Positions 6,121 to 60,640 of a DNA stretch of 64,000 bases are shown piece after piece (positions within the stretch are counted from its first letter, which is position 1; every line of letters begins with the position of its first letter). Made by a program: the position numbers and the translations under genes. The notes below the pieces were generated by a model. The model was given only the letters and a program-made list of their open reading frames with translations, was not told where the DNA came from and did no database searches. Source of the DNA: Alphaproteobacteria bacterium (GTDB taxonomy: Bacteria; Pseudomonadota; Alphaproteobacteria; SHVZ01); the NCBI GenBank assembly GCA_041906305.1, contig JAYRJL010000005.1, positions 212,269 through 276,268 of the forward strand, in the 5' to 3' direction.

Positions 6121-8799
6121 ATGTCCATCCGTAACCTAGACGCTCTCTTCAGACCCCGATCGGTGGCCGTCATCGGGGCCAGCCCGCGGCCCGGTTCGGT
6201 CGGACTCGTCCTGACCCAGAACCTGCTCGCCGGCGGGTTCGCCGGCCCGATCCACGCGGTCAATCCCAGGCACGCGGAGGTGGCGGGACTGAAGGTTCAT
6301 CCGGACGTCGCGGCGCTGCCCGAGGCGCCGGACCTCGCCGTCATCTGCACGCCGCCGGCGACGGTGCCGGGACTGGTCGCCGAGCTCGCGCGGCGCGGCA
6401 CGCGGGGCGCCGTCGTGGTCACCGCCGGCTTCAAGGAGCTCGGCAGCGCCGAAGGGCGCCGGCTCGAGCAGGCGATTCTCGACGCTGCCCGCCCGAACCT
6501 GCTCCGCGTCATCGGACCCAACTGCGTCGGCGTCATGTCGACCGCGGTCGGGCTCAACGCGACGTTCGCGCATATCGGTGCACGCAAGGGCAGTGTCGCC
6601 TTCGTCACCCAGTCGGGCGCCATGGCGACGACCGTGCTCGACTGGGCCTCCGATCGCGGCATCGGCTTCTCCTACCTGGCCTCGCTCGGCGACATGGCCG
6701 ACGTCGACTTCGGCGACATGCTCGATTTCCTCGCCAACGACACGGCGACGAGCTCGATCCTTCTCTACGTCGAGGCCATCACCAACAGCCGGAAGTTCAT
6801 GTCGGCGGCGCGCGCGGCCGCCCGCCTGAAGCCGGTGATCGTGATCAAGGCCGGGCGACACGACGCGGCGGCGCGCGCCGCGGCGTCGCACACCGGCGCG
6901 ATGGCGGGCGCCGACGGCGTCTACGACACCGCGTTCCGCCGCGCCGGCATGCTGCGCGTGCAGAGCCTGAGCGAGCTGTTCGATGCCGCCGGAACTCTTG
7001 CGACGTCGCTGCCGGTTTCGGGCGACAGGCTGGCGATCCTGACCAATGGCGGCGGTGCCGGCGTGCTCGCGACCGATGCCCTGCTCGATCTCGACGGCCG
7101 CCTCGCCGAGCTTTCGCCGGCCACGATCGACGCGCTGGACAAGGTCCTGCCGTCGACCTGGCCCCGGGCGAACCCGGTCGACATCATCGGCGACGCGCCG
7201 GCAGCGCGCTATGCGGATGCGCTGCGGATCATCAAGGACGCGCCCGAGGTTGACGCGACGCTGGTGCTGAACTGCCCGACCGCGATCGGGTCGGGAGTCG
7301 ATGCCGCGCGCGCCGTGGCTGGGGTCGCCTCCGAAGGGCGGCGCGCGATCCTGACCAGCTGGCTCGGCAGCAGCGCGGCGGCCGAGGCGCGACGGACCTT
7401 TGCCTCCGCCGGGATCCCGACCTACGACACGCCCGACGCGGCAGTCCGCGGCTTCATGCACCTGGTCAGGTACAAGCGCAATCAGGCGCAACTGATGGAG
7501 GTGCCGGCCGCCGGATCCGAGGAACCCAGGAGCCGCACCGAGGAGGCCCGGCAGATCGTTGCGGACGCGCTTTCCGGCGGAAGGTCGTGGCTGGACGAAG
7601 CCGAGATCACCCGGCTGTTCGCCTGCTACGGCATCCCGGCCGCGCGTTCGCTGCTCGCCACGGATCCCGACGATGCCGCCCGGTGCGCCTCGGCGCTCGG
7701 CGGCCCCTTCGCGCTCAAGGTTTCCTCGCCCGACATCACGCACAAGTCCGACGTCGGCGGCGTCGTGCTGGATCTCGCGACTCCGGAAGAGGTTCGCGGC
7801 GCGGCGGTGGCGATGCGCCGCCGCGTCGAGCAGGCGGTGCCGAACGGCCGCGTGACCGGTTTCATCGTCCAGGAGATGGTCCGTCGGCCCCGCGCGCATG
7901 AGGTGATCCTCGGCATGGCCGTCGATCGCCAGTTCGGCCCGTTCATGCTGTTCGGCCATGGCGGCACCGGCGTCGAGGTCATCGCCGACCGCGCGCTGGC
8001 CCTGCCGCCGCTCAACTTGAGCCTCGCGCGCGAACTCATGGCGCGCACGCGGATCCATCGCCTGCTGGTGGGGTACCGCAACCGTCCGGCCGCCGATCTC
8101 GACGCCGTCGCCGGGACGCTGGTCCGCCTGTCGCAGCTGATCTGCGATCTCGACGAGGTGGTCGAGATCGACCTCAATCCGCTTCTGGCGGACGAGACCG
8201 GCGCGATCGTGGTCGATGCCCGCATGCGCGTCGCACCCATGCCGGCGGGTGCCGCGCGCGGATCGCGCCTGTCGATCGTGCCCTATCCGAAGGAGCTCGA
8301 GCAGGTCGTCGAGATTCAGGGCGTCGGTCCGGTGCTGATGCGCCCGGTACGGCCGGAAGACGCGCCGGCCATCCTCCGCTACGTCGAAGGTCTTGCGCCG
8401 GAGGATGCGCGGCTGCGCTTCTTCGGCGCGATCCGCACCCTCTCCAAGGAGATGCTCGTGCGCCTGACCCAGATCGACTACGACCGTCAGATGGCATTCG
8501 TGCTCGAGGCGTCGGGCGAGATCCTCGGTGTGTCGCGCCTCGCGGCCGATCCCGACAACCGCCAGGCGGAGTTCGCGGTGACCGTCGGCAGCAAGCTCAA
8601 GTCGCGCGGCATCGGAACGCTCCTGATGCGCCGGCTGATCGAGCACGCGCAGGCGCGGCACATCGGCGAGCTGGTCGGCGAGATCCTCGCGGAGAACGCA
8701 CCGATGCTCTCGCTCGCCCGCGACCTCGGATTCAGGCTGAGCCCGCCCGACATCCGGAGCGGCACGGTCCACGCGGTGCTTCCGCTCGCGACGGCCTGA
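6121..8799 (+). CDS. pat: Pat-type protein lysine acetyltransferase (acetyl-CoA synthetase (ADP-forming)-like CoA-binding/ATP-grasp domains fused to a C-terminal GNAT)
   Basis: The N-terminus is the CoA-binding motif SVAVIGASPRPGSVG. Succinyl-CoA-synthetase-like and ATP-grasp regions follow, and the C-terminus is a GNAT domain (...QAEFAVTVGSKLKSRGIGTLLMRRLIEHA). The start was taken at M15, which gives an N-terminus like known Pat proteins. Confidence 0.8.
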   Translation: MSIRNLDALFRPRSVAVIGASPRPGSVGLVLTQNLLAGGFAGPIHAVNPRHAEVAGLKVHPDVAALPEAPDLAVICTPPATVPGLVAELARRGTRGAVVVTAGFKELGSAEGRRLEQAILDAARPNLLRVIGPNCVGVMSTAVGLNATFAHIGARKGSVAFVTQSGAMATTVLDWASDRGIGFSYLASLGDMADVDFGDMLDFLANDTATSSILLYVEAITNSRKFMSAARAAARLKPVIVIKAGRHDAAARAAASHTGAMAGADGVYDTAFRRAGMLRVQSLSELFDAAGTLATSLPVSGDRLAILTNGGGAGVLATDALLDLDGRLAELSPATIDALDKVLPSTWPRANPVDIIGDAPAARYADALRIIKDAPEVDATLVLNCPTAIGSGVDAARAVAGVASEGRRAILTSWLGSSAAAEARRTFASAGIPTYDTPDAAVRGFMHLVRYKRNQAQLMEVPAAGSEEPRSRTEEARQIVADALSGGRSWLDEAEITRLFACYGIPAARSLLATDPDDAARCASALGGPFALKVSSPDITHKSDVGGVVLDLATPEEVRGAAVAMRRRVEQAVPNGRVTGFIVQEMVRRPRAHEVILGMAVDRQFGPFMLFGHGGTGVEVIADRALALPPLNLSLARELMARTRIHRLLVGYRNRPAADLDAVAGTLVRLSQLICDLDEVVEIDLNPLLADETGAIVVDARMRVAPMPAGAARGSRLSIVPYPKELEQVVEIQGVGPVLMRPVRPEDAPAILRYVEGLAPEDARLRFFGAIRTLSKEMLVRLTQIDYDRQMAFVLEASGEILGVSRLAADPDNRQAEFAVTVGSKLKSRGIGTLLMRRLIEHAQARHIGELVGEILAENAPMLSLARDLGFRLSPPDIRSGTVHAVLPLATA

Positions 8800-8832
8800 T
8801 CCGGCTTCGTCGCGTGGTCCGGGGCGCGACGT

Positions 8833-9258
8833 TCAGGGCACGATCATGACGGGGCAGCCCGCCAGATGGATGGTCTTCCGCGACACGCTGCCGAACACCA
8901 GCGAGGTGACGCGCCCTCTGCCGCGCCGGCCGACGACGATGACGTCGGCCTGACGGCGCCTGGCGGCGTTGACGATCTCCTCGGCCGGATCGCCGACGGC
9001 AGCGGCCGTCTCGACGCCGGGGGCACCGGCGAGCGCCGCCTTCTCCTTGGCGCGCATCAGGAAGGGCGGGCGGAGGTCGACGAGGGCGTCGCGCGACTCC
9101 TCCAAGGAGGCACGTTCCCCCGAGTCGATGGCCTGGGGCAGGCTCCGCACCGCCAGCAGGGTGAGATCGGCGCCGCTCGCCTTCGCGATCTTCGCGGCGA
9201 CGCAGATCGCGCGATCGGCATGGGCCGATCCGTCGACGCCGACCAGGATTCTCTTCAT
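8833..9258 (-). CDS. Universal stress protein, single domain.
   Basis: The sequence reads MKRILVGVDGS...VIVVGRRGRGRVTSLVFGSVSRKTIHLAGCPVMIVP, which is the canonical Usp ATP-binding motif. Confidence 0.85.
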   Translation of the reverse strand: MKRILVGVDGSAHADRAICVAAKIAKASGADLTLLAVRSLPQAIDSGERASLEESRDALVDLRPPFLMRAKEKAALAGAPGVETAAAVGDPAEEIVNAARRRQADVIVVGRRGRGRVTSLVFGSVSRKTIHLAGCPVMIVP

Positions 9259-9329
9259 GGATGCCTCTCGGCGCAGGTGCGCCCGGATTCCGATGAAGAG
9301 AAGAATGACCTGCGCGGGCCGGGGTCTCC

Positions 9330-9343
9330 TTGATCTAACTCAA
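9330..9343. promoter_or_regulatory. FixK/FNR-type anaerobox TTGATCTAACTCAA.
   Basis: It lies 72 bp upstream of the usp start at 9258, between the fixK stop and usp. Confidence 0.6.
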
Positions 9344-9364
9344 GGGCCCCCGGGCGCGGGATCT

Positions 9365-10105
9365 TCAGGCGACGCCGCTTCCGATCGTGACCAGCTTGCC
9401 GCGGTCGCGGACGACGATCTGGCTGGCGGTCGGGATGTCGATGACGTGACTCTCGCGAAGCTGCGTCAGGATGCGGCTGACGGTCTCGATGGTGAGGCCC
9501 AGATAGTCGGCGATGTCCGCGCGGCACATCGGCAGCTTGATCGTGTCGGCGTCGACCGTCTTCGGCGACCGCGTGCGCTCGGTCATGGCCAGAAGGAAGG
9601 ACGCGATGCGCTCGACGGCGCTCTTGCGGCAGAGGGTGAGCAGACGCTCCTGCGCCGCCGAAAGCTGGCCGCACATCAGGTTGAAGAAGCGGCGCCCGGC
9701 ACGGGGATCTTCCTCGAGGAGCTGCTTCAGCTGCTGCTTCGGATAGCGGACGAAGCTGGTGTCGGACAGCACTTCGAGGGAGTGGCTGTAGGTGCCGTCC
9801 TCGGCGAGGCCGAAGAAGTCGCCGGGGAGCAGGAAGTCGATGACCGAGCGGCGGCCGTCGGGCAGCAGGCGGACCATGCGGAGCGCGCCACTGACCACCT
9901 TGTAGACGTGCTCCGCGGCATCTCCCTGCTCGACGATCGTCTTGCCGCGCGGCATCACGTGGAGCGAGCCCAGCCGGTCCAGCGAAGCGGTGCCCGCTTC
10001 GGCGCCGGTCGGCGGCGCGAGCCGGGGAAGCTGGGTGGACGAGGTCTTCCGCGCGGGGATCTGGGTGCGGATGGCCGGGGACGCCTGAGTAGCAACTGCC
10101 GTCAT
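9365..10105 (-). CDS. fixK: Crp/Fnr-family transcription regulator of the FixK type. It has no N-terminal Cys cluster.
   Basis: It has a cNMP-binding-like domain and a C-terminal HTH (ADIADYLGLTIETVSRILTQL). The conserved E..SR recognition residues are present and match the TTGAT half-sites found in the window. The start was chosen at the second ATG because it has a GGAGGG RBS. Confidence 0.8.
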   Translation of the reverse strand: MTAVATQASPAIRTQIPARKTSSTQLPRLAPPTGAEAGTASLDRLGSLHVMPRGKTIVEQGDAAEHVYKVVSGALRMVRLLPDGRRSVIDFLLPGDFFGLAEDGTYSHSLEVLSDTSFVRYPKQQLKQLLEEDPRAGRRFFNLMCGQLSAAQERLLTLCRKSAVERIASFLLAMTERTRSPKTVDADTIKLPMCRADIADYLGLTIETVSRILTQLRESHVIDIPTASQIVVRDRGKLVTIGSGVA

Positions 10106-14566: not shown

Positions 14567-14890
14567 TCACGGCGTCGTCTTGCGCTGCGTGCGTCGGAAC
14601 ATGCGATCGGCGCGTTCGGCCGCGGCCTTCGCGTTGTCGGCGGCATTCGAGGCGGCGGTCGATGCGGCGCGGGCGGCGTCGGCGCTCTGGCCGGCCGTGG
14701 CCGAGGCCCGCGCGGCTGCGTCGCTGGCGCTCCTGGCGGCATCGGCGGCGCGATCCGCCGCGGCCTTCGCCTCGATCGAGGTCTGCCGCACGCTTTCGAG
14801 CAGGGCGCGGTCGTCCTGGCTGAGCGTGGTGCAGGCGCCGAGCGCGACGACCGGCAGCGCCACGGCGAGCATCCTCGTGAATCGATTCAT
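14567..14890 (-). CDS. Small lipoprotein with an Ala-rich (alanine-zipper-like) repeat region.
   Basis: The sequence MNRFTRMLAVALPVVALGAC has a lipobox, and AAADRAADAARSASDAAARASATAGQSADAARAAS repeats follow. Confidence 0.55.
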   Translation of the reverse strand: MNRFTRMLAVALPVVALGACTTLSQDDRALLESVRQTSIEAKAAADRAADAARSASDAAARASATAGQSADAARAASTAASNAADNAKAAAERADRMFRRTQRKTTP

Positions 14891-14999
14891 CGTCCTTGCT
14901 CCTTTCGTGCCTGACGTTACTTGGAGGTCCTGATGGCGGTGGTCCTGACCTTGGACTCGATTGGTGCGGACAGCGTATGGCGGCCCGGAAGTCGCCTCG

Positions 15000-15013
15000 T
15001 TGATGTAGGTCAA
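15000..15013. promoter_or_regulatory. FixK/FNR-type anaerobox TTGATGTAGGTCAA upstream of the lipoprotein gene.
   Basis: The sequence is identical to the box at 30531. It lies 110-123 bp upstream of the ATG at 14890. Confidence 0.5.
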
Positions 15014-15054
15014 CGGGGGGTCATGCGGTGCCGCACGAGGATGTGAGGACCCGT

Positions 15055-15531
15055 CTAGCGCGCCGCGAGGCCGCGCTCGATGCGATGGGCCAGCGTGTCG
15101 AGATGCTTGCCGAGATCGCCGTCGGGCACCGGGGTCAGGTCCTTCGCGAGCTCGCCGACCACCCGCTTGCTGGCCTGGGTGTCGAGGTGGCCCCTGATCT
15201 CCCCGAGCACGCGCGCCGGCGCCACCAGCACCAGCTCGTCGAACTCCGCCGCACGCGAGGCTTCGTTGATGTCGGCGGCGGTCTTGTGCGCAAAGGCGAG
15301 CTTGGCCTGCCGATGCGGGTCGTGCTTCGCCTCGGCCGCGTGGCGGGCCGAAGACGCGCTCTCGCCGACACGTCCGGCGCGATCCGACACGATCTGCGAG
15401 GTCTTGAGCCGGGCCAGTCGCGATTCCGACCGGCTCACCTGGTGATAGCCGCCGGTCTCGGCGTCGCGGCGGACGATGCGCGCATGGGCGCCGTCGGCGA
15501 TGAGGTACCAGATCTCGACGTGCTTCGACAT
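15055..15531 (-). CDS. Host-attachment-protein-like (PF10116-like) small soluble protein.
   Basis: The sequence MSKHVEIWYLIADGAHARIVRRD...FAHKTAADINEASRAAEFDELVLVAPARVLGEIRGHL matches family members as far as I can recall them. The family assignment is by memory only. Confidence 0.5.
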   Translation of the reverse strand: MSKHVEIWYLIADGAHARIVRRDAETGGYHQVSRSESRLARLKTSQIVSDRAGRVGESASSARHAAEAKHDPHRQAKLAFAHKTAADINEASRAAEFDELVLVAPARVLGEIRGHLDTQASKRVVGELAKDLTPVPDGDLGKHLDTLAHRIERGLAAR

Positions 15532-15594
15532 TTCTTCCTCCGTCTGAAGCGTGACGCAGACGACAACAGCTAGCGCAGGTCGCGCGAGATCGGA

Positions 15595-15608
15595 TTGACG
15601 TGGATCAA
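15595..15608. promoter_or_regulatory. FixK/FNR-type anaerobox TTGACGTGGATCAA in a divergent intergenic region.
   Basis: Its centre is 79 bp from the MBL gene ATG at 15680 and 71 bp from the host-attachment gene ATG at 15531. Its sequence is identical to the box at 12935. Confidence 0.6.
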
Positions 15609-15679
15609 TCTCCGGCCTTGGCTCAGGCGGCAAAAAGGAGAACGAATAGGTTCAGGCACGCGCATCAACCGGGAAATCC

Positions 15680-17308
15680 ATGACCACGACGCCCGCTCAT
15701 TCCGTCACCCTGCAGTTCTGCGGGGGCGCGCATACGGTCACCGGCTCCTGCCTCCTGTTCCGGACGCCGAGGGCCAAGGTTCTCGTGGATTGCGGGATGT
15801 TCCAGGGATCGAAGACGCTCAAGTCGCTGAACTACGGCGCCTTCGCGTTCGACCCTTCCGAGATCGACACCGTGCTCCTCACCCACGCGCATATCGACCA
15901 CAGCGGGCTGCTGCCCAAGCTCGTCACCAGCGGCTTTCGCGGCCGCATCCTGGCGACCCGCGGCACCATCGATCTCTGCTCCTATCTCCTGCCGGATGCG
16001 GGCTACATCCAGGAGAGCGAGGTCGTCGCGCTGAACCAGCGGAACGCGGCGCGCGGCCGCGAACCGGTGTCGCCGATCTACACCAAGGCCGATGCGATCG
16101 CGTCGCTCAACGCTTTCCGCCCGGTCGACTACGAGACGTGGTTTTCGGCCGCGCCGGGCGTGCGCGCGCGCTTCTGGAACGCCGGCCATCTTCTCGGATC
16201 GGCGTCGATCGAGCTCGAGTTCGAACCGGCAGCCGGCGGACGTCCGCTGACGGTGCTGGCCTCCGGCGACATCGGCCCGAACGGCAAGCTGTTCCAGCCC
16301 GACCCCGACGCGCCGTCCGGAATCGACTACGTCGTCTCGGAGTCGACCTATGGCGACACCGACCGTCCGGACGTGTCGTCGAAGGAACGCCGCAAGCGCC
16401 TGGCGGACGAGCTCCGCGCCGCGCGGTCCGCCGGCGGCGCCCTGCTGATCCCGGCCTTCGCGGTGGAGCGGACGCAGGAGCTTCTCGTCGAGCTGATGGA
16501 CCTGATGGACAAGCACGAAGTGCCGGCGGCGCCGGTCTTCCTGGACTCGCCGCTCGCGATCCGGGCGACCGAGGTGTTCCGGCAGCACGCCTCGACCCTC
16601 GAAGGCGACTTCGACATCGACCGCCTGCTCGACTCCCCGCACCTGCATGCGACGGAGACGGTGGAGGAGAGCAAGCGGATCGCGCGCTTCTCGGGCTTCC
16701 ACATCATCGTCGCCGGCAGCGGCATGTGCGAGGCAGGGCGCATCCGCCACCATCTCAAGCACTGGCTCTGGCGGCGGGATGCGACCGTGCTGCTCACCGG
16801 ATTCCAGGCGCGCGGAACCCTGGGGCGCTTCCTCGCCGACGGCGCCTCGGCGGTCCGCATCCAGGGCGAGGAGGTGAAGGTCGCCGCACGCATCCGGCAG
16901 ATCGACGACTATTCCGGCCACGCCGACGGCCCCGAGCTGCTCGACTGGATCACGCGGCGCGGGCCGATCCGCCGCGGCATCTTCCTCGATCATGGCGAGC
17001 GCGGCGCGCTCGAAGCGCTTCGCCGGCACGTCGACGAGCATCTCGGCGGAGCGCCCGTCTGTCTCGTGCCGGAGCTCGACCAGCGCTTCGAGATCGGCGA
17101 GGCCGCGCCTCGGCCCCTCGAAGGCGTGCAGCGGCGGCTTCAGCCGGAAGCCGTCGAGAACCTCGACTGGCACAACGAGATGTCGAGGCTCATCCTCGAC
17201 ATCAACCGGCGGCTGGAGGGCGCGTCGAGCGACCGCGAGCGCGACCAGCTGGTGCGGACCCTGCGCCAGGCGCTGGGAAATGCAGGTGCGGCCGCGCCGA
17301 GAGGCTGA
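15680..17308 (+). CDS. MBL-fold metallo-hydrolase with a beta-CASP / RNA-specificity domain (RNase J / CPSF-like).
   Basis: The HAHIDHSG motif is present, and MBL, beta-CASP and C-terminal RNA-metabolising regions follow in that order. It is 542 aa. Confidence 0.8.
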   Translation: MTTTPAHSVTLQFCGGAHTVTGSCLLFRTPRAKVLVDCGMFQGSKTLKSLNYGAFAFDPSEIDTVLLTHAHIDHSGLLPKLVTSGFRGRILATRGTIDLCSYLLPDAGYIQESEVVALNQRNAARGREPVSPIYTKADAIASLNAFRPVDYETWFSAAPGVRARFWNAGHLLGSASIELEFEPAAGGRPLTVLASGDIGPNGKLFQPDPDAPSGIDYVVSESTYGDTDRPDVSSKERRKRLADELRAARSAGGALLIPAFAVERTQELLVELMDLMDKHEVPAAPVFLDSPLAIRATEVFRQHASTLEGDFDIDRLLDSPHLHATETVEESKRIARFSGFHIIVAGSGMCEAGRIRHHLKHWLWRRDATVLLTGFQARGTLGRFLADGASAVRIQGEEVKVAARIRQIDDYSGHADGPELLDWITRRGPIRRGIFLDHGERGALEALRRHVDEHLGGAPVCLVPELDQRFEIGEAAPRPLEGVQRRLQPEAVENLDWHNEMSRLILDINRRLEGASSDRERDQLVRTLRQALGNAGAAAPRG

Positions 17309-35638: not shown

Positions 35639-35659
35639 TGAAACCGCGGCTCGCCTCGT

Positions 35660-35764
35660 ACCCCCTCCCCCTTGACGGGGGAGGGATGGGGTGGGGGTGG
35701 AGCAGCAAACTCGTTGCTGGCAGCACCCCCCACCCTAACCCTCCCCCGCAAGGGGGGAGGGGAC
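35660..35764. repeat. Composite GC-rich palindromic repeat (REP/MITE-like), copy 1.
   Basis: The sequence is CCCTCCCCC-ttgac-GGGGGAGGG atGGGGTGGGGGTGG ... CCCCCCACCCTAACCCTCCCCCgcaaGGGGGGAGGGG. It belongs to the same family as the copies at 38.1, 47.7, 50.4, 54.4-54.8 and 60.6 kb. Confidence 0.8.
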
Positions 35765-35789
35765 ATGAGACGCGAGCGGAGTCACTCTG

Positions 35790-38078: not shown

Positions 38079-38095
38079 CGACCTCGCTACGCTCG

Positions 38096-38222
38096 GCCCC
38101 CACCCCGTCCCTCCCCCGGCAGAGCCGGGGGAGGGTGCTCGATGTCGTCTTTCGTGCCCCCTCCCTCGGCTGCGTAGCAGACGGGGGAGGGACGGGGTGG
38201 GGGCAGCGCTGCGTAGCAGCGC
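38096..38222. repeat. Composite GC-rich palindromic repeat, copy 2.
   Basis: The sequence is CCCCCACCCCGTCCCTCCCCC-loop-GGGGGAGGG ... CCCCCTCCC-loop-GGGGGAGGGACGGGGTGGGGG. A direct repeat GCTGCGTAGCAG is also present. Confidence 0.8.
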
Positions 38223-47624: not shown

Positions 47625-47774
47625 CCCTCCCTCGCGTCGTACGCGGGGGAGGGCAGGGTGGGGGCACTGGCTCGATTGACCGGTTAGTCCAAGTGGTTGC
47701 CGGCGTTCCTGCGACGTCGACCTCGCGCAGGCCCCCATCCCGTCCTTCCTCCGCGTACGACGCGAGGGAAGGGG
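47625..47774. repeat. Composite GC-rich palindromic repeat, copy 3. It is more degenerate than the others.
   Basis: The sequence is CCCTCCCTCGCGTCGTACGCGGGGGAGGGCAGGGTGGGGGC ... GCCCCCATCCCGTCCTTCCTCCGCGTACGACGCGAGGGAAGGGG. Confidence 0.7.
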
Positions 47775-50387: not shown

Positions 50388-50545
50388 CCTCGAGTCCCCT
50401 CCCTCGCCGGAGGCGGGGGAGGGCTAGGGTGGGGGCAAGACTCGGTGGCGCGATCGGTCGAGACGGCAGCCGCCGCGACTCCGACGTGCCACCTCGCGCG
50501 GGCCCCCCACCCCGACCCTCCCCCGCGTATGACGCGAGGGAGGGG
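50388..50545. repeat. Composite GC-rich palindromic repeat, copy 4.
   Basis: The sequence is CCCCTCCCTCGCCGGAGGCGGGGGAGGGCTAGGGTGGGGGC ... GCCCCCCACCCCGACCCTCCCCCGCGTATGACGCGAGGGAGGGGG. Confidence 0.8.
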
Positions 50546-53484: not shown

Positions 53485-54348
53485 ATGGCGCTGGAAATCG
53501 GCCAAGTCGCAGGCGGATTCGGGGTCTTCTCGGTCCGCAGGGGAAACCAGGCCCCGGGCGACGCGGTCGCACCCATCGGGACGGAAGACGCGGCTCCTCA
53601 GCAGGAGCAGGCCCCGCCTTTGACCGGCGTCGTGGGCGTGCGGCCCGTTTCCGGCCAGGCGATCCAGACCCTCCAGGGCACAGACCCCAGCGCCGATACC
53701 GGTGAAGAGGGCAAAGACTCCAAGCAGGACGGCGAGCTCACCGAGGACGAGGAAAAGGTCGTCCGCGAGCTGAAGCAGCGCGACCAGGAGGTCCGCCGCC
53801 ACGAGGCCGCGCATGCGGCGGCGGGCGGCAGCTTCGCAGGCTCGCCGACCTTCACCTACGAGTCCGGCCCGGACGGCCAGCGCTATGCCGTCGGCGGCGA
53901 GGTCTCGATCGACGCGAGCCCCGGGCGCACGCCGGAAGAGACGATCCGCAAGGCCGACCAGATCCGCGCCGCGGCGCTGGCGCCGGCCGACCCGTCGGGC
54001 CAGGACCGCGCGGTCGCCGCCGCCGCCGCCAAGATGAAGCTCGACGCCCAGGGCGAAGCGGCGAAGCAGCGCCAGGAAGAGTTCGAGGCGAAGCAGGCCG
54101 AAGGCAAGTCCGAGCCGGCGCTGCCCGGCCAGAAGAAGCCGGAAGAGACGGCGCCCGAGATCGTCGGGCCGAAGCCGATCGGGCAGAAGGACGAAGAGAA
54201 GGGCGCGCCGGGTGCGACCTCCGCGGGCAACGAGCCCTTGGCAACCGACGGCCGACTCGCCGCTGCCGCCAACGCCTACGGCCGCGTCGATGCCTCCGTC
54301 ACGCGCTCGAACCGCACCGCTGCCAACGCGCTGAGCCTGGTGGCGTAA
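53485..54348 (+). CDS. SprA-related family putative metalloprotease.
   Basis: The sequence RRHEAAHAAAGGSFAGSPTFTYESGPDGQRYAVGGEVSIDASPGRTPEETIRKADQIRAAALAPADPSGQD matches the family, and an AGAGGG RBS is present. The family assignment is from memory. Confidence 0.5.
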   Translation: MALEIGQVAGGFGVFSVRRGNQAPGDAVAPIGTEDAAPQQEQAPPLTGVVGVRPVSGQAIQTLQGTDPSADTGEEGKDSKQDGELTEDEEKVVRELKQRDQEVRRHEAAHAAAGGSFAGSPTFTYESGPDGQRYAVGGEVSIDASPGRTPEETIRKADQIRAAALAPADPSGQDRAVAAAAAKMKLDAQGEAAKQRQEEFEAKQAEGKSEPALPGQKKPEETAPEIVGPKPIGQKDEEKGAPGATSAGNEPLATDGRLAAAANAYGRVDASVTRSNRTAANALSLVA

Positions 54349-54378
54349 GGCCTCATTAGGGCGCGAGGCGCCTCGTAT

Positions 54379-54842
54379 CCCCTCACCCCGCGGAGCGTGG
54401 GGGAGGGTTAGGGTGGGGGGCGAGACTCGCTTGCACCACCCAACGCCGCAGCAATCTTCTCCATCACGCCATCGAGGTTCTCCAGAACCTCGTTGTTCCA
54501 GAAGCGCAGGACGCTGAAGCCTTCGCTTGCCAGCCACCGCGTCCGTTGCTCGTCATAGGCGGATTGTCCTGCGTGCTGGCCGCCATCGAGCTCGATCACG
54601 ACTTTCGGGTCGAAGCAGGCGAAGTCGGCGATGTAGCGCCCGATGACAGCCTGTCTGCGAAAACGTGCGCCGCGGATCTGTCCGTTGCGGAGGCGCTGCC
54701 AGAGCGTGCGCTCGGCGTCGGTCATGTTCCGGCGGAGAGAGCGGGCGTTCGGAGTGAGAGGCGAGGACTTGTCGGGCACCCCCCACCCTAACCCTCCCCC
54801 ACGCTCCGCGGGGGGAGGGGATAAGAGATGACGTTGTCTTAC
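54379..54842. mobile_element. Candidate small mobile element. A DUF559 endonuclease gene lies between about 43-bp terminal inverted repeats that belong to the same GC-rich repeat family.
   Basis: The left end is CCCCTCACCCCGCGGAGCGTGGGGGAGGGTTAGGGTGGGGGG. The right end, CCCCCCACCCTAACCCTCCCCCACGCTCCGCGGGGGGAGGGGA, is its reverse complement. The cargo is the DUF559 ORF. Confidence 0.5.
54408..54725 (-). CDS. DUF559 (Vsr-like endonuclease-fold) domain protein.
   Basis: The sequence MTDAERTLWQRLRNGQIRGARFRRQAVIGRYIADFACFDPKVVIELDGGQHAG...RTRWLASEGFSVLRFWNNEV matches DUF559. The track ORF extends 5' through the inverted repeat, so the true start was set at M151. Confidence 0.7.
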   Translation of the reverse strand: MTDAERTLWQRLRNGQIRGARFRRQAVIGRYIADFACFDPKVVIELDGGQHAGQSAYDEQRTRWLASEGFSVLRFWNNEVLENLDGVMEKIAAALGGASESRPPP

Positions 54843-54847
54843 GTCCC

Positions 54848-55336
54848 CTACTTCACCACTTCGTCCGGGTACGCGCCGAAGAACTCGGTGCGCTTGAGCC
54901 AGCCCTTGTAGCCGCCGATCTCGGCGCGGCACCAGGCTTCGCGGCATTCCATCAGGCGGCCGACCAGGCCGGGCTCGACCATGGCGATGGCGTCGGCGTC
55001 GTCCTTGCGGTCGCTCCGGAGCTTCCGGGTCTCGCCGGTGATCAGCAGCGTGCGGCGGCCGGTGAGGAAGCTCGACTGCACCCAGCCGACCGAGCCCTGG
55101 AAGTCGCGGATGCGCCGCCAGGTGTCGAATTCCTGGATCACCTCGACCGGCATCGCGCGCTTGGTCAGCACCCACTCGATCGGATAGCGGGTGCCGGGGC
55201 CGGTCCTGAGGTTGATCTCGCCCGAGCGCAGCGAAACGAAGCGCGGCACCGGCAGGCCGCTCTCGTTGGCGGCGTCCGCAGGGAAAGAACCCGTGGCGAG
55301 GAGGAGGATCAGGAGGACGGCGAGACGACGCAGCAT
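54848..55336 (-). CDS. Secreted bacterial SH3-domain protein.
   Basis: It has a signal peptide (MLRRLAVLLILLLATGSFPADA). The SH3b-like motifs are PRFVSLRSGEINLRTGPGTRYPIEWVL and WCRAEIGGYKGWL. Confidence 0.7.
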   Translation of the reverse strand: MLRRLAVLLILLLATGSFPADAANESGLPVPRFVSLRSGEINLRTGPGTRYPIEWVLTKRAMPVEVIQEFDTWRRIRDFQGSVGWVQSSFLTGRRTLLITGETRKLRSDRKDDADAIAMVEPGLVGRLMECREAWCRAEIGGYKGWLKRTEFFGAYPDEVVK

Positions 55337-60539: not shown

Positions 60540-60640
60540 TCCCCCCACCCTGACCCTCCCCCACAAAGGGGGGAGGGGACACGAGGCGTCCTTTCATGCC
60601 CCCTCCTCCTCGATGGGGGAGGGTTGGGGTGGGGGTGGAG
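60540..60640. repeat. Composite GC-rich palindromic repeat, copy 6.
   Basis: The sequence is CCCCCCACCCTGACCCTCCCCCacaaaGGGGGGAGGGG ... CCCCCTCCTCCTCGATGGGGGAGGGTTGGGGTGGGGGTGG. Confidence 0.8.

Follow-up and report, generated by a model that had tools for sequence, protein, structure and literature searches.

BoxC or PIT elements, the repeats closest to those treated here, were reportedly dealt with by Bergler (1992), Hoyne et al. (2000) and Hoyne & Maher (2002), with Bachellier (1999) also named in this connection. They have been known since the early 1990s, and the main survey, in which they are called TM repeats (TMECO in Escherichia coli), saw no mobilising activity (Holder et al. 2015, PMC4666352). 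According to that survey E. coli K-12 carries 23 TMECO copies, five of them as inverted doublets, TMECO oligonucleotides form a stable intrastrand class II triplex as judged by circular dichroism and nuclear magnetic resonance (NMR), and the repeat occurs in more than 260 genomes, where it is linked with locally unstable loci and where doublets collapse to a single hairpin by a "palindrome effect" (PMC4666352). The same paper found no mobility-related genes near TM motifs and nowhere mentions ycjD or DUF559, a very widespread orphan nuclease family with a solved structure. In the second system of comparison, the REP/REPIN-RAYT relationship, a nuclease gene that is usually single-copy lies between inverted copies of a dispersed hairpin repeat, which occurs as singlets and inverted doublets. 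Here we describe a window (the whole stretch of DNA analysed, 64,000 nt of contig JAYRJL010000005.1 from an alphaproteobacterium) in which a DUF559 gene lies inside an inverted doublet of TM-type units. Repeat and protein family are each known; the specific association of DUF559 with TM repeats is the new point. We propose, with a probability of roughly 0.55, that the RFWNNE-type DUF559 subfamily comprises the cognate structure-specific nucleases of TM repeats, in a partnership of the RAYT/REPIN kind.

The longest inverted repeat of the 64-kb window is formed by two arms of 49 nt, 54372-54420 and 54779-54827, which are 96% complementary and separated by 358 nt; they delimit a 456-bp segment (54372-54827) that is a doublet of repeat units with the DUF559 gene as its spacer (Table 1). 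An earlier inspection by a model that was given the letters alone, called here the sequence-only reading, had reported 43-bp inverted repeats bracketing a DUF559 gene in an element running from 54379 to 54842. The inverted repeat is real and slightly longer than claimed, and the right-hand limit is withdrawn, position 54842 lying 15 nt past the repeat. As DNA hairpins the left and right arms fold at -11 and -13.9 kcal/mol, respectively. The most likely start of the gene, judged from the sequence, is the GTG at 54779-54777, on the inner edge of the upstream arm, which gives a product of 123 aa; this codon is preferred because it is kept in the orthologous copy of the metagenome-assembled genome (MAG) MBR_H10.65 (locus L001) and because the N-terminus (M)PDK resembles the MPDR of homologues. 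The ATG at 54726, from which a frame of 105 aa had been counted, is disfavoured since the DUF559 domain begins upstream of it.

The assignment of the product to DUF559 is upheld by a match to PF04480 (E=1e-44; 151.3 bits against a cut-off of 20.6; profile positions 4-108 of 109) and by similarity to the solved Neisseria gonorrhoeae DUF559 protein 3HRL (E=3e-30), which its PDB entry labels merely an "endonuclease-like protein". DUF559 and MTES_1575 are the only Pfam matches, and the product is thus a single-domain PD-(D/E)XK protein without an integrase or strand-transfer domain. The YcjD equivalog model PRK09767 (NCBIfam) scores 119.4 bits, below its curated cut-off of 218, which points to a relative of YcjD without ortholog status. 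The window protein has the family-invariant residues D52, E63, D65, G66, Q68, H69, R79 and RFWNNEVL, which include the acidic and histidine motif D...ExDGxxH; invariance across 81 sequences was recorded for D52, E63, D65, G66, H69 and RFWNNEVL. Between the window gene and its orthologous copy in MBR_H10.65, 15 of 372 nt differ (10 synonymous and 5 non-synonymous changes, pN/pS=0.16), and the gene is maintained under purifying selection.

Each repeat unit consists of a C-rich stem Y (e.g. CCCTCCCCC), a loop of 3-16 nt, a complementary G-rich stem R (GGGGGAGGG), a linker of 2-3 nt, often TTA, and a second G-tract R' (GGGTGGGGG) that is the mirror image of R and neither its copy nor its complement. 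On the minus (coding) strand the right arm of the DUF559 doublet reads Y-loop-R-TTA-R' and ends at the GTG start codon. The mirror relation was examined in 581 hairpins from the window and the 80 related loci described below, 426 of which were unique with an asymmetric R. With identical search freedom, the downstream tract was a perfect mirror of R in 150 of these 426 and a perfect direct copy in 26, and permuted partners gave 7% perfect mirrors. The tract base opposite each A of R was T in 194 cases, A in 178 and C in 1, and unit variants co-vary in all three segments (GGGGGAAGG with GGATGGGGG, GGGAGAGGG with GGGTGAGGG, and GGGAGGGG with GGGGAGGG). Such a pattern is the signature of a single-strand purine-motif triplex built of G.GC, T.AT and A.AT triads; triplexes of this kind do not form in RNA, according to work cited in PMC4666352.

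On this evidence the window units are a variant of the published BoxC/PIT/TM (TMECO) intrastrand-triplex repeat, which the sequence-only reading had not recognised. Both have a 9-nt C-rich stem, a loop (3-6 nt as published), a complementary G-rich stem, a 3-nt second loop of the TTA or CCG type and then the mirror G-tract, and both are intergenic and multi-copy, often form inverted doublets, occupy locally variable loci and show the collapse of a doublet to a single hairpin (here at the orthologous site in L086). The window units do not match the exact TMECO consensus CCCTCNCCC N3-6 GGGNGAGGG N3 GGGNGAGGG; they represent a one-A, G/C-rich TM variant (GGGGGAGGG / GGGTGGGGG as against GGGNGAGGG / GGGNGAGGG), and TMECO-type variants flank DUF559 at other loci, E. 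coli and Enterobacter included. What sets the window apart from the published work, which has no associated mobility or enzyme gene, is the DUF559 gene inside the doublet.

Three other readings of the unit were rejected. A G-quadruplex in the G-rich half would leave the mirror placement of the A/T interruptions unexplained; the GGAAGG/GGATGG variants have G2 tracts only, and for TMECO a quadruplex is excluded by NMR (PMC4666352). A structural switch in which the third tract pairs with the C-stem needs a direct copy, which is rare (26 against 150 mirrors), and a known structured RNA found no Rfam match in the window, introns included. As a side observation, the linker is TTA, TCA or CTA in 72 of the 196 perfect units of the window and the loci, giving TAA, TGA or TAG on the opposite strand, and the window gene and its Enterobacter homologue both have their stop codon inside a unit; besides forming a triplex loop, the linker may be under selection to supply a stop codon.

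Twelve units of the window form six inverted doublets, five of them gene-less (Table 1). The pattern CCCTCCCCC-N4-20-GGGGGAGGG occurs five times where none is expected, and GGGGGAGGG-NNN-GGGTGGGGG with up to three mismatches gives 13 matches, corresponding to the 12 units, against 0.16 expected in 64 kb, so that the arms around DUF559 are indeed built from the modules of the short copies, as first supposed. Doublets with the mirror G-tracts inside are called type 1 and those with the tracts outside type 2; four doublets including the DUF559 copy are type 1 and two are type 2 (38091-38209 and 60542-60635). In the 47625-47772 doublet, which is common to the window and L001, the loops of both units are mutually reverse-complementary, and its spacer and the spacer of the 50.4-kb copy are homologous at their right ends. 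The 50.4-kb doublet is present in MAG MBR_H10.65 and absent from L082, the relative with an 88%-identical SH3 protein. The spacers of the short copies resemble the DUF559 interior within the range of shuffled sequences, bar a marginal match in the 38.1-kb copy. There, part of the type-2 spacer (38136-38158) matches coding positions 54590-54607 at 15 of 18 nt (score 21 against a shuffled maximum of 20), a match that may be fortuitous or may be a short relic of an earlier gene copy. The six doublets are accompanied by a single DUF559 gene in the window.

These copies bear on the sequence-only reading taken literally, by which the element would be a classical autonomous transposon with terminal inverted repeats, its short copies being internally deleted derivatives like miniature inverted-repeat transposable elements (MITEs) mobilised in trans. 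As with MITEs and their autonomous parents, terminal inverted repeats are common to long and short copies and the short copies outnumber the coding one; the short copies are also polymorphic between relatives, and the 3' sub-terminal 9 nt of the gene-bearing copy, CGAGTCTCG, resemble the inner edge of the 50.4-kb copy. Two of the five short copies, however, are type 2 with the G-tract outside, an arrangement that cannot come from the gene-bearing copy by internal deletion, and the spacers lack significant similarity to the gene interior. In addition, the arms of one element can be different variants, the ~120-aa nuclease is no transposase, consistent target-site duplications are missing from 36 elements and two in-gene junctions, and the modular units are found in either relative orientation. 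Enterobacter has one copy of the gene, stably placed at a conserved site, against more than 100 repeats. The deletion origin of the short copies was therefore abandoned, and we regard the transposon explanation as very improbable: lacking target-site duplications and showing unrelated spacers, type-2 doublets, mixed-variant arms and single DUF559 copies, the units behave as modules, for which the relationship of REPINs to RAYTs is the better fit.

To follow the association beyond the window, each species was represented by one genome and scanned with protein motifs taken from the query; of the 268 relatives returned, the best 80 loci (50-97% identity) were used. Because retrieval relied on coding motifs only, selection for repeats was impossible. 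The loci span at least eight phyla, with hosts among Alpha-, Beta-, Gamma- and Deltaproteobacteria, Omnitrophota, Chloroflexota, Patescibacteria, Dadabacteria and a Firmicute. Of the 77 testable loci, 68 have an inverted repeat within 200 nt either side of the gene that scores z>=5 relative to shuffled sequences, nearly always with the Y-loop-R-linker-R' architecture. Strict units were found within 150 nt of the gene on both sides at 44 of the 80 loci and on one side at 23 (67 in total); at distances above 500 nt, 99 units in 840 kb give a background of 0.118 units per kb, which amounts to an enrichment of about 30-fold near the gene. Where both sides carry a unit, the orientation is +/- (mirror tracts inside) in 36 cases and -/+ in 5. 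The supposed tie between DUF559 and this palindromic repeat family, and the flanking of DUF559 genes elsewhere by inverted units, are thus borne out across other genomes. DUF559 is present as a single copy at 79 of the 80 loci, and the two arms of one element can belong to different unit variants. Co-clustering of DUF559 clades with unit variants was discarded as a test of co-evolution, since both follow host taxonomy and the arms of some elements are two different variants.

These figures leave little room for a coincidental or indirect link, in which TM units and a transferred Vsr-like repair gene merely share variable intergenic hotspots, or in which the cassette is invertible and phase-variable. 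TM loci are unusually variable, the orthologous site described below holds different cargo in different relatives, the Caulobacter DUF559 protein VsrA appears to be a mismatch nuclease, and predicted targets of programmed inversion show a 14-fold enrichment in DUF559 proteins (PMC9881135). This last enrichment is probably due to these very repeats. An incidental link would be hard to reconcile with the ~30-fold enrichment, the preferred orientation, start and stop codons that overlap the units, and the many phyla involved; the gene also has SH3_4 and SprA-related proteins rather than a methyltransferase or invertase as neighbours, and the cassette has the identical orientation in the window and L001. 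We consider this explanation very improbable. Very-short-patch repair by Vsr or Caulobacter VsrA shares fold and Pfam family with the window protein but differs in that the window gene has no adjacent cytosine-5 methyltransferase, its conserved partner being the flanking repeat.

Two of the related loci are unusual in copy number. A gammaproteobacterial MAG (L015) holds 24 repeat units in 16 kb, arranged beside its DUF559 gene as tandem doublet arrays with periods of ~357 and ~399 nt (8488-9593 and 14699-16328), and tblastn found no second DUF559 copy at this locus. A Thermodesulfobacteriota MAG (L042:1364-4305) has three DUF559 paralogues in 3 kb, 43-53% identical to the query, and is the only one of the 80 loci with several copies.

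Further examples from cultured organisms were drawn from a plasmid collection. DUF559 genes have units on both sides in Deinococcus proteolyticus and on a plasmid of Synechocystis sp. B12 (L092:828-3333), and a unit upstream in Azospirillum brasilense; in Picosynechococcus PCC 7002 pAQ6 (L094) the gene is accompanied by shorter G5-type units and lies just upstream of a DUF1156 gene. The Synechocystis cassette is situated between a 5' fragment of DUF1156 and a hypothetical open reading frame (ORF), as if splitting a DUF1156 (methylase-like) gene. The gene of the crystallised protein, N. gonorrhoeae NGO0050, has a decayed unit ~110 nt upstream. Downstream of DUF559 in Sinorhizobium sp. K101 (L096:1858-2030) there are repeats of the pattern ATCTCCCCC-loop-GGGGGAGAT in which CAGAGGGGG, the mirror of the G-stem, comes after a longer linker; judging by this arrangement, some intergenic repeats of rhizobia may be related to the triplex units but have longer linkers.

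In E. coli K-12, ycjD is the only DUF559 gene of the genome; its 3' end runs into a decayed unit, and TMECO no. 9 follows 168 nt downstream of the stop codon. The ycjD-fabI interval (L089:2250-2430) contains a duplicated DUF559 3' fragment (ATGGAGACGGTGCTGGAGAATATTCGGCAAGGTCTGAACCG), the decayed unit GGGTTAGGGG and then intact TMECO no. 9. The original description of BoxC came from this region. Enterobacter asburiae and E. cloacae have a single-copy homologue at one conserved locus, between hemW and yggN, whose last codons and TGA stop lie inside a "-" TMECO, an intact "+" TMECO following 10 nt further on. TMECOs are most abundant in E. asburiae, with up to 143, and Salmonella has none (Holder et al., PMC4666352); correspondingly, the best 120 YcjD homologues include many from Enterobacter and none from Salmonella. 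Within E. coli, the ycjD-carrying phylogroups A, B1 and C have 13-30 TMECOs, phylogroups D, E and F an intermediate 6-15, and B2, which has eefRABCD in place of ycjD, 0-2. Such taxon-level correlations give weak support to a link between nuclease and repeat.

At six of the 80 loci the units and DUF559 lie in frame inside large conserved genes, the hosts being PriA (L024 and L040), IleS (L078), HrpA (L039) and a DnaE-type polymerase (L033). In the IleS case the tRNA-synt_1 match spans residues 43-874 with DUF559 at 323-428. The nested copies are read through in frame and lack intein domains. Rickettsia palindromic elements (RPEs) offer an analogy, being palindromic repeats that lie in frame in coding genes without destroying them; their sequence family is unrelated to TM units, and to our knowledge they encode no protein. 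Among 120 close HrpA homologues from Gallionellaceae and Sideroxydans, proteins with PF04480 are 1374-1668 aa long and those without it 1242-1305 aa. Four or more insertion sites emerged from an alignment of 18 of the 120. In 11 proteins site A is vacant, in five (including Sideroxydans lithotrophicus and Ferrigenium UT5) it holds units and DUF559, and in one units only. At site C, L039 has units and DUF559, one further protein has a doublet without the gene, and the remaining 16 have nothing. In-frame doublets without the gene are -/+ and the DUF559-bearing ones +/-, so the former are not simply empty versions of the gene-bearing allele. Gallionellaceae HrpA proteins (P0148, P0170, P0203, P0216 and P0220) also have two or more additional sites where units alone are inserted in frame and give peptides such as PLPSPPPGGEG and SPSPNGGGVGEG, and in P0148 (1668 aa) long tandem runs of unit-derived peptides surround DUF559.

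Polymorphism, which was the other check put forward with the sequence-only reading, was likewise found at the orthologous site between the SH3_4 and SprA-related genes. The site is occupied, in the same orientation, in the window and in MAG MBR_H10.65, both contigs of which break inside the arms. Relatives with an 83%-identical SH3 protein have a 61-nt spacer with a solo hairpin that retains the same loop (cgcggagcgt) and outer tags and has neither mirror tract nor gene, and those with an 88%-identical SH3 protein (L082:5540-5794, also L083-L085) have an unrelated 84-aa Cys-rich, zinc-ribbon-like ORF, which gave no Pfam match and contains no repeat unit; hence this spot holds different cargo in different lineages. 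In sequence the solo hairpin matches what the "palindrome effect" of collapsed doublets would leave (Holder et al.), and the change at this site is readable either as a gain or as a loss. We rejected the idea that the cassette had entered the loop of an existing hairpin, since the loop of the window arm is found complete in the solo hairpin of the empty site.

Presence and absence at such sites also suit a selfish DUF559 of the homing type, which would cut empty TM doublets and be copied in by repair, the doublets serving only as landing sites and the gene-less units spreading separately through replication slippage at structured DNA or some other host function. In nearly all cases two inverted units flank the gene precisely, one and the same HrpA site can hold units alone or units together with DUF559, the in-frame insertions hit conserved replication and translation genes, and spread across phyla at 50-70% identity suggests horizontal transfer. 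The Vsr-like fold, moreover, includes a proven homing endonuclease family: EDxHD enzymes such as I-Bth0305I (PDB 3R3P) are grouped with Vsr and DUF559 (PMC3424549) and share with the cassette the nuclease superfamily and clade, a selfish-looking distribution and presence or absence at conserved sites, also within conserved genes. Unlike them, the DUF559 cassette has no intron or intein, is translated within the host protein, has structured repeats on both sides and is mostly single-copy. A homing enzyme would not be expected to meet units-only in-frame doublets in the opposite orientation (-/+) to the DUF559-bearing ones, nor, in Enterobacter and E. coli, to remain confined to a single copy at one conserved place despite dozens to hundreds of potential target doublets, and more than one copy was seen at only one of the 80 loci. 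We therefore hold homing to be unlikely.

A third explanation would make DUF559 a host maintenance enzyme that removes or resolves TM hairpins and triplexes at replication forks, the flanking units being regulatory (autoregulation, a hairpin sequestering the ribosome-binding site, or a terminator) rather than signs of mobility. Purifying selection and vertical inheritance at a fixed locus speak for it, as does the stalling of DNA polymerase by TM units in vitro that the introduction of PMC4666352 mentions. In the upstream arm GGAGG is paired with CCUCC immediately before the start codon, and no sigma-70-like promoter was found for DUF559 within 54200-55000, so that expression of the gene may be unusual. 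Left unexplained are the in-frame insertions of the whole cassette in PriA, IleS, HrpA and DnaE and the presence or absence at orthologous sites; the opposite unit orientation, at 5 of the 44 two-sided loci, makes a fixed role as ribosome-binding-site hairpin or terminator unlikely, and Hoyne and Maher, as cited in PMC4666352, found that the E. coli units act neither as promoters nor as terminators. We give this explanation little credence.

The pattern as a whole best matches the REP/REPIN-RAYT relationship. Common to both are the usually single-copy nuclease gene between inverted copies of a dispersed hairpin repeat, vertical inheritance at a fixed locus (seen here in Enterobacter) and the lack of target-site duplications. 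The differences are that DUF559 is a Vsr-like PD-(D/E)XK protein rather than an HUH/Y1 (IS200/IS605-like) transposase, forms no covalent intermediate and is unable to rejoin DNA, that TM repeats have no GTAG/CGTC head and possess a third, triplex-forming segment, and that the gene-bearing cassette is itself inserted in frame in host genes. We propose that usually one nuclease gene, bracketed by two inverted units, would serve the dispersed gene-less units and doublets. A unit on transiently single-stranded DNA would fold into hairpin and triplex, DUF559 would recognise the fold and nick there or adjacent to it, and the break would be repaired by recombination with, or copying from, other units, whereby units would be duplicated, converted, collapsed or deleted. 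Occasionally the gene-bearing doublet might be carried to new sites, including in-frame positions in genes. The wider claim, that the RFWNNE DUF559 proteins including YcjD are triplex- or hairpin-recognising nucleases that drive the birth, conversion and loss of TM repeats across most phyla, is a tentative one, to which we attach somewhat less than even odds.

Several points weigh against the proposed partnership. We infer that DUF559 acts on the units by binding or cutting them, with their spread or turnover as the outcome, and a PD-(D/E)XK nuclease alone is incapable of strand transfer. As such an enzyme cannot rejoin DNA, any mobility would have to proceed via host repair, which would also account for the missing target-site duplications. 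No consistent direct repeats were found at the ends of 36 elements, and comparison of filled and empty alleles at two HrpA junctions gave weak, inconsistent similarities only, so that the target-site duplications sought after the sequence-only reading did not materialise. The element has not moved since the divergence of the window and MBR_H10.65 (dS ~0.11, same site). Strict units are missing at 13 of the 80 loci, several of which have composite two-hairpin arms with very strong inverted repeats (e.g. Stellaceae and Caulobacter), and the retrieval of the 80 loci was biased to the FWNNEVLE-motif subfamily. The Caulobacter DUF559 protein VsrA is apparently a Vsr-like mismatch nuclease tied to a methyltransferase, and the whole Pfam family is thus not uniformly repeat-associated. 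The E. coli phylogroup contrast is confounded by phylogeny, and phylogroups D and E retain 10-15 TMECOs though they reportedly lack ycjD. Finally, the double-stranded motif adopts duplex DNA, not triplex, in vivo (Holder et al., PMC4666352).

The phylum-spanning link provides each of DUF559 and the TM repeats with a candidate partner and suggests a RAYT-like system founded on an unrelated nuclease and triplex DNA. If correct, it would be a second, mechanistically independent invention of the nuclease-repeat partnership typified by RAYTs and REPINs, and DUF559 would be the first known enzyme whose specific target in the genome is a naturally occurring DNA triplex; the link would also give a concrete answer to the ~30-year-old question posed by the TM repeats and a function to a common orphan nuclease. 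For annotation, the start and stop codons of DUF559 genes are often mis-called because they lie in repeats, and some essential genes (PriA, IleS, HrpA and DnaE) carry a nested nuclease domain and are annotated as odd fusions. Our full-text literature searches, the older subscription literature being beyond their reach, found nothing that ties DUF559 or YcjD to these repeats and nothing on nested in-frame DUF559-repeat insertions.

Table 1. Positions of the DUF559 cassette, its arms and the gene-less doublets in the window.
Feature	Positions	Strand	Remarks
DUF559 (Vsr-like PD-(D/E)XK) endonuclease gene, 123 codons	54408-54779	-	GTG 54779-54777, TAA 54410-54408
Type-1 doublet containing the DUF559 gene	54372-54827		
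Downstream repeat unit (left arm on + strand)	54372-54420	+	inverted-repeat arm, direct sequence reading
Left arm, outer tag CTCGTAT	54372-54378	+	
Left arm, C-stem (Y) CCCCTCACCCC	54379-54389	+	
Left arm, loop GCGGAGCGT	54390-54398	+	
Left arm, G-stem (R) GGGGGAGGG	54399-54407	+	
Left arm, linker TTA	54408-54410		minus-strand TAA stop of DUF559
Left arm, mirror G-tract (R') GGGTGGGGGG	54411-54420	+	
Upstream repeat unit (right arm on + strand)	54779-54827	-	
Right arm, Y' CCCCCCACCC	54779-54788		read on + strand
Right arm, linker TAA	54789-54791		read on + strand
Right arm, Y CCCTCCCCC	54792-54800		read on + strand
Right arm, loop ACGCTCCGC	54801-54809		read on + strand
Right arm, R GGGGGGAGGGG	54810-54820		read on + strand
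Right arm, outer tag ATAAGAG	54821-54827		read on + strand
Gene-less type-1 doublet	35652-35772		spacer 29 nt; long DNA hairpin, fold z=-8.4
Gene-less type-2 doublet	38091-38209		
Gene-less type-1 doublet	47625-47772		spacer 66 nt; one unit is the GGAAGG/GGATGG variant
Gene-less type-1 doublet	50396-50543		spacer 68 nt; complementarity reaches 50381-50560
Gene-less type-2 doublet between two co-directional genes	60542-60635		DNA fold z=-4.1

The neighbours of the window DUF559 gene are convergent genes for an SH3_4 protein and a SprA-related protein. No methyltransferase or invertase gene adjoins it at the locus, the remaining window not having been scanned for methyltransferases, and the PADLOC defence-system models matched no family. 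Contigs of MAG and Logan assemblies end inside units or within 5 nt of DUF559 at several loci (L001:1-39, L081:5502-5554, L101-L103 and L105). Short-read assemblies break at the units, and the cassette is consequently under-counted in draft genomes. Just outside the upstream arm, directly 3' of the SH3 stop codon, lies a small terminator-like hairpin (54830-54845; GACGT...ACGTC with a T-rich tail).

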